Assembly: GCA_965204735.1 (NCBI GenBank)
Contig: OZ242008.1
Location: 1,856,001 to 1,920,000, forward strand
Source of the DNA: Longimicrobiales bacterium
GTDB taxonomy: Bacteria > Gemmatimonadota > Gemmatimonadetes > Longimicrobiales > Gaopeijiaceae
DNA length: 64,000 nucleotides
Direction: 5' to 3'
Shown here: positions 36,001 to 39,000 of the stretch, piece after piece
Numbering within the stretch: position 1 is the stretch's first letter
Layout of the letters: each line of letters begins with the position of its first letter
Made by a program: the position numbers

Positions 36001-39000
36001 ACGACGAGGAGCCCAGGACTCTGGAGGAGATCGGCGCGCTGCTCGGGGTCACCCGGGAGCGCGTCCGCCAGATCAAGGAGAAGGCGCTGGCCCGCCTCCG
36101 TCACCCGACCAGGGCTCGGTTCCTGGAAAGCTACTTTCACTAGCCGCCGGCTGTCGTACCAATTTAGAAATGTCCGGTCTTACCAAGATAGAAATGTCCT
36201 CTTTCGGGCGATGTTCGGCGGGAGTCGAACTCGTGCCCGGGAGAGGAGCGAATGGAGTTGAGCTTGAAGGAGCGGGACCGGATCTCGGTGTTGAGGCAGG
36301 TGAGCGAAGGCGTGCTGGCGGCGGCCGACGGCGCGGCGCGCTTCGGGGTGACGGAGCGTCACTTCCGGCGCGTGCGCCGCCGGTTCGAGGCGGCGGGCGA
36401 CGAGGTGGTCGTGCACGGGCTCCGGGGTCGGAGGTCGAACCGGTCGCTGCCGTCGGAGACGCGGGAGCAGGTGCTGGTCATGGCCAGGGACCCCGACTAC
36501 GCCGACTTCGGCGCCACGTTTCTGGCGGAGCACGTCGAGCGGGAGCTGGGCGTGCGCGTCAGCGCGGAGACGCTGCGGGCATGGCGGAAGGGCGCGGGCT
36601 TGTGGCAGCGCAAGCGCAAGCGGGCGAAGCACCGGCGCCGACGGCCGCGTCGCGCCGCGCGGGGCGAGCTGCTCCAGTGGGACAGCTCGGTTCACGCCTG
36701 GCTTGAAGACCGGGGGCCGCCCGACCTCGTGCTGATCGCGCTGCACGACGACGCGACGAGCGGGTTCATGCACGGTCGCTTCGTCGAGCGCGACACGGGC
36801 GCCGCGAATCGGCGAGCGATCGTCGAGTGCCTCGAACGCCACGGACGGCCGAGGGCGGTATACGTGGACCACGCGGGCCACTTCGGGCAGCGCCTCGGCC
36901 CGGAGGGCAAGCGGACCCGGACGATCATCGGCACGGCGCTGGAGAAGCTGGGCGTCGAGGTGATCCTGGCGAACTCGCCGCAGGCGAAGGGCCGGGTCGA
37001 GCGGACGTTCGGCACGGCGCAGGACCGGCTGGTCAAAGAGATGCGCTTGGCGCGAGTCACCACGCTCGAGGCGGCGAACCGCTACTTGGAGGAGCGGTGG
37101 GTTCCGTTCTGGAACGAACGCTTCACGGTGGCGCCGGCCGATCCCCTCGACGCCCATCGCCCGCTGCCTCAGGACATCGATCTGGAAGCCCTCTTCGCCG
37201 AGACGGACACGCGGGTCGTGGCCCGCGACTTCACCGTGCGCTTCGAGAACCGCTTCTGGCAGGTCACGGCCCGCGACGCCGAGGCGGCCGGCGTCGCGCC
37301 GGGCTCCCCCGTCGTCGTCGAACGGCGCCTCTCGGGCGAGCTGCGCTTCCGGCATCGCGGCTGCTACCTGACGCCCAAGGCCTTGGGGGCGGTCCGGTCG
37401 GCGACGCCCAAGCCGGCGCCGGCGCCCGCGACGGCCAAGCCCAGGCCCAAGCCGCCGAAGCCGGGAAGGGATCACCCGTGGCGCAAGCACTTCAGCGCCA
37501 GCGTGGCCCAGGCCGTGGCCAAGCGGGAACACCGCGCCGCCCACTCCAACGGGACCGGTCCCGAGCGGTGCAGGACCTCGTCCTGAGCCCGCAGGCGGGG
37601 ACGGCGGCTCGCACCCCCCTTCCCGCAAAGGTCGGACGCGACCGCAGTGTCGGCATCCGTGCCTCCGAGGCTTGCCGGCGCTGCGCAGGTCGCTCGGCGC
37701 ACCACGACCGTCCGAGCTGGCAGGCTCAGTGCGAACTGCGAGCCATCGGGGCAGCAGTGTCCGGACCCGTCCGCGTTGGCGTCCACCCGGCCAGAGCTTG
37801 GCCACGGCGACGACCTCGACTCGCCCGGCCGCCACTGGCCTTGAAGCGCCCGGAACAGGGCGCCCGGCGCCGTCCAGCCCAGGCTTGCTGGATCCGCGTG
37901 TCCTGCGCCCGACACCTGGCCCCCGGCCTCAGGAAGAACCCACCGTCCACACCATCAGGGGGGACATTTCTACTTTGGCCAACTACCGGACATTTCTACT
38001 TTGGCTTGACATTCACTAGCCGCCGGCCGTTGACATCGTCCCGATCCGTGGAGTATTATTCCAGGCTTTGGACCTTCAGGCCGATTCCTGGAGAACGCGC
38101 GTCCGCAGACGCCGGACGCCGGCTGCAGGGACGGCAAGCCAAGACGCCGAGAACGGGACGACAGTGAACAGAACCTTCACGCCGCGAGAAGGGGACATCC
38201 GCCGGAGCTGGTGGGTCGTCGACGCCGAAGGGAAGCCTCTGGGCCGGCTGGCCACCGAGGTCGCCCGGGTGCTGCGAGGCAAGCACAAGACGATCTACAC
38301 GCCGCACCTGGACACTGGCGACCACGTGATCGTGGTCAACGCCGCCAAGGTCGGACTTACCGGTCGAAAGGCGGAGCAGAAGACCTACTTCCGCCACTCG
38401 GGCTACATGGGCGGAGAGAAGCACATTCCCTTCCGCAAGATGCTGGAGCGGTTCCCCGACCGGGTGATCGAGCTGGCCGTCCGGGGGATGCTCCCCAAGA
38501 ACAAGCTGGGCCGAAGGATGCGTCGAAAGCTCCGAGTGTACGCCGGACCGACCCACCCGCACCAAGCCCAGAACCCCCGAGCGCTGGAGATCCGCGCCGG
38601 GCGCGCGTCGTGAGCGCTTCGCAGTCGTGCCGGGCAGTCGGTCGGAGGAAGACCAGCGTCGCGCGCGTCAGCCTTCGCCCGGGCACCGGGAAGTGGAAGG
38701 TGAACGGTCGGGGCCTCGACGACTACTTCCCGCGACCGGCCCACCGGACGCGGGTCGAGGACCCGATGCGGGCGGCCGACGCCGAAGGCCGCTTCGACGT
38801 GGAGGTTCGCGTTCGGGGCGGGGGCCTGACGGGCCAAGCCGACGCGATCCGGCTGGGGGTGGCCCGAGCCCTGGCGGCCGACGACGCAGAAGCGCGCAGG
38901 CCCTTGCGGGAGAGCGGGATGCTCACCCGGGACGCCCGCAAGGTGGAGCGCAAGAAGCCCGGGCGTCCCAAGGCGCGCAAGCGCTTCCAGTTCAGCAAGC

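Follow-up and report, generated by a model that had tools for sequence, protein, structure and literature searches.

Two papers define the IS1202 family of insertion sequences (Siguier et al., bioRxiv 10.1101/2022.12.17.520857; Harmer et al., PMC10132070), and in the parts of both that were available, targets are described only for the IS1202 group with 5-bp duplications and none for the long-duplication group. The available text of Harmer et al. (PMC10132070) finds no evidence that "any other conserved sequence" is targeted, and the flanks given in Supplementary Table 1 of Siguier et al. (10.1101/2022.12.17.520857) may bear on a target rule. Within the family, the dif/pdif hunters ISAba32 and ISAjo2 resemble the element studied here in being helper-free and in placing the duplication flush against the binding site of a host protein, for which contact with XerC has been proposed. 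Outside the family, TnGBS, ISLre2 and ISKra4 choose sites 15-17 bp ahead of sigmaA -35 boxes, in one orientation if their ends are unequal and both ways if these are symmetric, and contact with RNA polymerase has been proposed (Guerillot et al. 2014, PMC3942029, in the portion of the paper at hand). Promoter homing as described in that portion (PMC3942029) is therefore known in ISLre2, TnGBS and ISKra4, a precedent omitted by the genome-wide survey's note that pointed us to this locus, and is new for the IS1202 family; no report of a promoter rule for the family was found in the literature searched, which consisted mostly of sources other than subscription journals, ISfinder and TnPedia.

The window analysed here is a stretch of 64,000 nucleotides from a Longimicrobiales bacterium, whose position 1 is position 1,856,001 of contig OZ242008.1; copy starts are given as contig positions (Table 1). 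It carries one copy of an IS1202-family element, for which insertion at a fixed distance upstream of predicted sigma70 promoters was confirmed as real, strong and replicated. Our preferred reading, at a probability of roughly 0.7, is that this one-gene element, through contact with the promoter-bound holoenzyme, is inserted right at the upstream border of housekeeping (sigma70-type) promoters.

Table 1. Features of the element and its surroundings (window positions unless marked as contig)
Feature	Position	Strand	Remark
RpoD/SigA-like sigma factor gene, intact	35298..36143	+	stop 8 bp ahead of element
Left 16-bp target duplication copy	36136..36151	+	last codon and stop of sigma-factor gene inside
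IS1202-family insertion sequence, complete	36152..38011	+	1860 bp, TGT...ACA ends; 1 of 12 full copies
Left element end	36152..36199	+	terminal TGT; AGAAATGTCC repeated twice, at positions 15 and 39
DDE transposase gene	36252..37586	+	444 aa
KPxxxHPWR motif	37458..37484	+	C-terminal, behind Pro/Lys linker; candidate targeting peptide
Right element end	37962..38011	-	inverted repeat, two AGAAATGTCC repeats, positions 15 and 41; + strand terminates in TTGACA
Right 16-bp target duplication copy	38012..38027	+	about -53 to -38 of predicted promoter
Predicted -35 box	38030..38035	+	TTGACA, 2 bp past right duplication
Predicted -10 box	38054..38059	+	TATTAT, spacer 18 bp
rplM-like gene	38164..38613	+	starts rplM-rpsI-rpsB-tsf-like run; names read from translations
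Full-copy starts (contig)	257775, 340280, 814233, 1892152, 2123213, 2453367, 2872289, 3081308, 3102376, 3488514, 3580346, 3827119

The DDE transposase of 400-500 aa, the TGT...ACA ends with an internal repeat, a length within the range of 1320-1990 bp and the lack of a helper ATPase place the element in the IS1202 family, and the 16-17-bp target duplication of 12/12 copies agrees with the 15-17 bp of the ISTde1 subgroup. As far as the available parts of the defining papers describe that subgroup (10.1101/2022.12.17.520857; PMC10132070), the likeness extends to the TGT...ACA termini, the internal repeat, a transposase of 400-500 aa with an extra DD and a Q at E+7, and Gemmatimonadetes among the hosts. 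The 5-6-bp duplication and the left end 5 bp from the dif XerC arm that characterize ISAba32/ISAjo2 were not found; those elements differ further in that their left end always comes first and in that the C-terminal HPW is missing (0/11). The AGAAATGTCC repeats in both element ends are, by analogy with PMC10132070, likely transposase-binding sites.

The transposase matches the NCBIfam ISNCY model NF033594 (332.7 bits, cut-off 250), the IS481 model scoring below its own cut-off, and consists of HTH domains followed by the DDE residues and a beta-barrel. It carries the IS1202 signature (D144, D166/D167, D206, E250, Q257), that is, an extra DD between the first two D and the Q at E+7. Its structural model (pLDDT 92.8) has IstA and TnsB as best fold matches (Foldseek E 1.7e-14 to 1e-9), and the 1860-bp element has a single transposase reading frame and no helper ATPase gene; the survey's description of an IstA/TnsB-like transposase without helper is thus upheld. 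IS21 IstA and Tn7/CAST TnsB, in contrast, use an AAA+ helper (IstB, TnsC). Profile searches gave no match to the ISLre2 or IS256 family, and the modeled fold, of the IstA/TnsB type, sets the enzyme apart from the Mutator-like (p-MULT) transposases. The D-to-E distance is 44 here and in 13/18 proteins of the clade with a +2 offset (see below) vs 50-54 in 63/80 offset-0 proteins; judged from these alignments, the longer distance is not universal within the ISTde1 subgroup. Along the gene, the loop between D206 and E250 (about 36867-37001) comes after window positions 36770-36830.

All 12 full 1860-bp copies listed by the survey were re-found at the same starts, with identities of 99.4-100% and an exact 16- or 17-bp duplication each. 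Contigs from 3/4 sequencing runs, each of a separate study, run from position 36135 straight to 38012, with 1876 bp absent and 16 letters shared at the joint, so that an empty allele exists and the duplication is real; a circle junction was not among the joints listed from the four contig runs, whose contigs drop rare forms. Three further kinds of copy fall outside the 12 counted sites or carry deletions: a partial copy (contig 511962-512666) has a TTG 18 bp from its right end and a decayed copy at 737097 a TTGACT at 19 bp on the left side, both in line with the rule, and three internally deleted copies share one common target inside an ISL3-like element with no promoter there, which counts as one miss. 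The latter (855646-856721, 1795348-1796423, 3009048-3010096) lie 14 bp within the end of the ISL3-like element, a label taken from a reading of that element's ends and protein, and moved with it three times. The sigma factor gene next to the window's copy (35298-36143) is short, encoding 281 aa without region 1.1, and is among the three top Sigma70_r4 matches in the genome.

At the element's own sites, taking the +2 position on either side, TT[GC] occurs at 10/12 and TTG at 8/12, against 5.6% and 2.6% of random intergenic targets (genes by a crude caller, either side counted); the binomial p-values of 2e-11 and 1e-10 are overstated, the copies not being independent. Other offsets from -6 to +20 hold 0-2 sites each, except for 4 TT[GC] at +19, and those from -3 to +9 only 0-1. 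Both the peak and its isolation in the survey's note were thereby reproduced, with a background of 5.6% in place of its 5.2%, and its remark that sites 3488514 and 3827119 fit poorly is one with which we agree, the former being counted as a miss. Two further claims stood in part. A -10 box had been reported at 9/12 sites; under a stricter rule (A2, T6, at least 3/6 matches, spacer 16-18) both boxes occur at 7/12, still far over the background of 0.34%. The next gene does lie on the promoter strand at 11/12 sites (crude gene caller; rplM-like, tRNA-Asn and tRNA-Met genes among them), a weak support given a gene-strand baseline of 54-61% (p ~0.02, by hand). Site 340280 has a TTG at +2 on both sides and lies between divergent genes, possibly a back-to-back promoter pair.

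The rule was then measured in relatives from the element ends. A duplication-anchored end finder, which on 226 loci had given 42 long duplications, 2 short ones, 162 without any and 20 without ends, was replaced by an end-profile method in which ends are located by a weight matrix trained on 44 ends and distances are counted outward with no duplication filter, the step at which the survey had lost half of its loci; ends scoring <10 were uncounted, and 52 flanks were removed as duplicates and 35 as too short. Since one promoter-side end is expected per insertion, the ceiling is about half of the ends. Among 78 ends of close relatives (Gemmatimonadota with a transposase identity of at least 48%), TTG lies at 18, 19 and 20 bp in 9, 20 and 5, or 34 in all, with 0-2 at other distances up to 40. 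Among 109 ends of distant elements (JGI metagenomes, 80 of 597 loci kept), it lies at 15, 16 and 17 bp in 20, 14 and 6 (40 in all; 0-4 elsewhere), and TAnnnT starts at 38 bp in 18 ends and at 39 bp in 22, again with 0-4 elsewhere. As the 18-20 and 15-17 windows were derived from the data, fixed-window scoring was applied to held-out ends, found by terminal pattern in further genomes with the 18-20-bp window fixed in advance: TTG lies at 18-20 bp in 31/66 (5, 19 and 7), 25 of these with a -10, with 0-3 elsewhere, and four held-out ends have both boxes at 16-17 bp. Applied to the 5-bp group, the same end finder recovers the known rule that left ends abut dif sites. Kin and copies are not independent, and no pooled p-value was computed; none of the conclusions depends on the unpublished genome G182.

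The offsets claimed earlier, +2 in close kin and 0 in distant elements, thus reappear on independently built locus sets and without a duplication filter, including loci lacking a duplication and the 66 held-out ends. Naming the whole ISTde1 group as promoter-targeting holds for the sampled clades and is broader than the sample, which covers IS1202 diversity other than the 27-28-bp subgroup and the named ISfinder members (ISTde1, ISShha1, ISHahy13, others). Plasmid protein searches returned mostly dif-group matches, and two viral end-pattern scans gave one locus each, one with a -10 in place and a weak -35, the other without a promoter. Sense tRNA genes lie behind only 3/125 promoter-side flanks in relatives vs 1/103, and there is accordingly no clear bias to the strongest promoters. 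Some elements of 2.8-4.7 kb have the same ends and probably carry passenger DNA (G161:C1:936297-939088, 1316782-1319574 and 2751549-2754342; G064:C1:1822822-1827523; G133:C1:1861367-1865192).

The target appears to be a whole promoter rather than a triplet. A TTG at the target offset is accompanied by a -10 in 22/34 and 31/40 cases vs 5/48 and 18/96 for TTG elsewhere in the flanks, and the aligned hits reconstitute TTGACA-N17-TAnnnT with a spacer peak at 17; within the duplicated stretch of these hits neither a consensus nor an A+T-rich, UP-like bias was found. In ends without TTG, TAnnnT still occupies the -10 slot in 14/79 and 18/65 (shifted controls 1-4), and one or the other sign is present in 79/144 and 58/105 ends. 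A box lying some 40 bp outside the element therefore helps to fix the site, and it is the whole promoter that is chosen. The promoters are consensus predictions, relative to which the fixed geometry and the dependence on both boxes are evident. Site choice points to something bound to the promoter, not to bases read beside the cut. A transposase that itself reads the DNA, be it TTG or both boxes, without RNA polymerase would account for TTG or TT[GC] as the commonest feature beside the cut and for the base at -1, which is C or G in 34/34 close-relative hits, but it is at odds with the 32 ends without TTG that keep their -10 some 38-42 bp from the element end, and with TTG elsewhere in the flanks, which seldom has a -10. 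We know of no single transposase that reads, past its own cut site, a pair of boxes separated by 17 bp, which also counts against this explanation, and we regard it as improbable.

Closer to our reading, the transposase might home to promoters without protein contact, picking bent or exposed DNA that the holoenzyme makes just upstream of the -35. The -10 dependence, the lack of a consensus in the duplication and the wide host range would follow equally well from DNA shaped by the polymerase; yet the offset is exact to about 1 bp, it depends on the clade (+2 vs 0), and orientation is lineage-specific, all of which suits a stereospecific contact and makes bent or exposed DNA the less likely, if still serious, candidate. 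Contact with the promoter-bound holoenzyme would proceed as follows. The transpososome would dock on the RNA polymerase holoenzyme at the promoter (sigma region 4, the beta flap or the alpha-CTD), possibly through a conserved C-terminal PxxxxPW peptide, and cut the DNA beside it, in the manner of the sister group at XerC-bound dif sites. The geometry of the cuts is itself observed: they are staggered by 16-17 bp (16-18 in kin), and the one nearer the promoter falls 2 bp before the -35 in the +2 clade and directly against it (offset 0) in the more distant clades, whose duplications measure 15-17 bp. The benefit may be a safe, mostly intergenic landing place. The predicted promoter survives the insertion with 16-17 bp of its upstream DNA duplicated, and because this long duplication copies about -38 to -54, it retains its immediate upstream DNA.

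Three further explanations were rejected. If insertion were random and selection then left the harmless spots upstream of promoters, surviving insertions would be mostly intergenic, as indeed they are, but any larger distance would be tolerated as well, and counts past the peak drop to 0-4; moreover, ISEsa1-type transposons cut at the hok start codon and yet keep their distance to an antisense promoter-like site. Selection alone, which cannot yield a peak 1-3 bp wide, is thus very improbable. It could also be imagined that the terminal TTGACA of the right end forms a hybrid promoter with a host -10 and that insertions are kept for this reason, in favor of which outward -35 boxes in right ends have been remarked upon (Siguier et al., bioRxiv 10.1101/2022.12.17.520857). 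Such a promoter needs a -10 about 17 bp from the end, however, and TAnnnT peaks at 38-43 bp, and left ends, without TTGACA, abut promoters equally often; contradicted on both counts, this explanation is barely credible. Lastly, the 425 bp that follow the transposase gene within the element as a 3' tail could encode an RNA that guides it to its targets, but relatives of 1410-1419 bp (L075, L098, L113) with little room besides the transposase obey the distance rule, and the targets have no common sequence beyond the promoter boxes, on which grounds an RNA guide was dismissed as highly unlikely.

Transposase phylogeny was inferred with FastTree from 151 proteins of locally fetched loci, a set without ISTde1 itself; owing to the midpoint rooting, the direction of change is not established. 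The +2 elements fall into a single clade (30 rows, support 100) set among lineages with offset 0, and ISEsa1 is placed as sister to the dif group (support 100). Insertion in either orientation, as stated in the survey, holds for the +2 clade, which uses both ends (own copies left 6/12, right 4/12; close relatives left 17/41, right 12/37). It does not hold for several offset-0 clades, read off the tree after the fact: the promoter lies at the left end in 7/9 and at the right in 1/8 in one of them, and at the left in 1/7 and the right in 10/11 in another, so that orientation is lineage-specific. Many offset-0 left ends (L071-L147) have TGATAAT or TGAGAAT at positions 14-20, with right ends there having TAGAAAT and terminating in TTGACA; if the element circularized with its ends about 3 bp apart, such end sequences could make a promoter across the junction of this intermediate.

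The C-terminal tail is the candidate targeting peptide (PxxxxPW/HPW). The column of its tryptophan W410 is conserved in 100% of +2 and 89% of offset-0 proteins and in both ISEsa1 proteins and absent in the dif group; a literal HPW or HPF occurs in 17/18, 33/80, 2/2 and 0/11 proteins, respectively. An ESM Atlas search of the tail reached a best score of 0.81 against unnamed clusters, a lead at most.

The fixed distance between element end and -35 is a likeness to TnGBS, ISLre2 and ISKra4 as the accessible part of PMC3942029 describes them, and amounts to 15-17 bp in the distant IS1202 kin and 18-20 bp in the +2 clade. The enzymes differ, being of the Mutator-like superfamily there and of the IstA/TnsB-like fold here. 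The duplications of those elements, about 8-9 bp, are shorter than the IS1202 ones, and their near cut is therefore not flush with the -35. A parallel is yeast Ty3 integrase, where tethering to the initiation machinery (TFIIIB/TFIIIC, at Pol III starts) fixes the position (cited in PMC3942029, available in part); Ty3 is a eukaryotic retrotransposon for which the contact is established, whereas for the IS1202 element we infer it. The promoter rule answers what the long-duplication IS1202 group targets, left open by both family-defining papers, and means that homing to promoters has arisen a second time, independently, among bacterial DDE transposases, here in a TnsB/IstA-like enzyme without helper. 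It provides a simple one-protein system for testing RNA polymerase tethering beside a sister group targeting XerC sites. In uncultured bacteria the element ends also locate promoters to one or two bases, and a mini-element might be used to map promoters or to insert DNA while sparing genes.

A more complicated case is the enterobacterial ISEsa1 branch. ISEsa1 is entered without a duplication in Table 7 of Harmer et al. (PMC10132070, as far as available), and we find it to be the left part of a longer unit transposon with a 15-16-bp duplication (L234, L235, L312-L317). In the Qin region of E. coli LR-64-1 (L235:4507-7807) the ends enclose a transposase remnant, flxA, ydfV and relBE between 15-bp duplication copies, and ydfW is the transposase's end. 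The duplication there splits a hok/sok locus: sok, an Rfam match scored on the homologous L166, lies to the left, and hokD to the right. An insertion at this locus would account for hokD standing behind relBE, separated from its sok leader. The available portions of PMC9208149, 10.1101/2025.07.22.666184 and 10.1101/2025.08.07.668861 contain nothing on IS1202 targets or the origin of hokD. Four hok/sok loci that have diverged from one another (L235, L314, L315, L316) each have a promoter-like site starting 15 bp outside the left end, with a -35 of TTGCCT in two and one mismatch in two, and a -10 TAnnnT at 17 bp in 4/4. At three other ISEsa1-type sites, on plasmids (L312/L317, L313, left flank of L228/L234), it is absent, and with the hok ribosome-binding sequence as a possible alternative target, this branch supports the promoter rule in part only.

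We tentatively suggest that helper-free IS1202 transposases hunt the edges of host protein-DNA complexes, PxxxxPW docking on the sigma70 holoenzyme being widespread and ancestral and the dif-hunting ISAba32 group having changed its tail, because promoter-abutting elements span many deep branches and because the HPW tail, duplications of 15-16 bp and promoter-like flanks are all retained in ISEsa1, the sister of the dif clade. We consider this doubtful as yet; if true, tail swaps would switch targets. Plasmid-borne ISEsa1-type units carry up to 12.8 kb of metal-resistance genes between their ends, among the contents being nickel and chromate resistance and relBE. At L316:13242-13258 two tandem ISEsa1-type elements are parted by the same 15-bp duplication, one site having been reused, as with the dif hunters.
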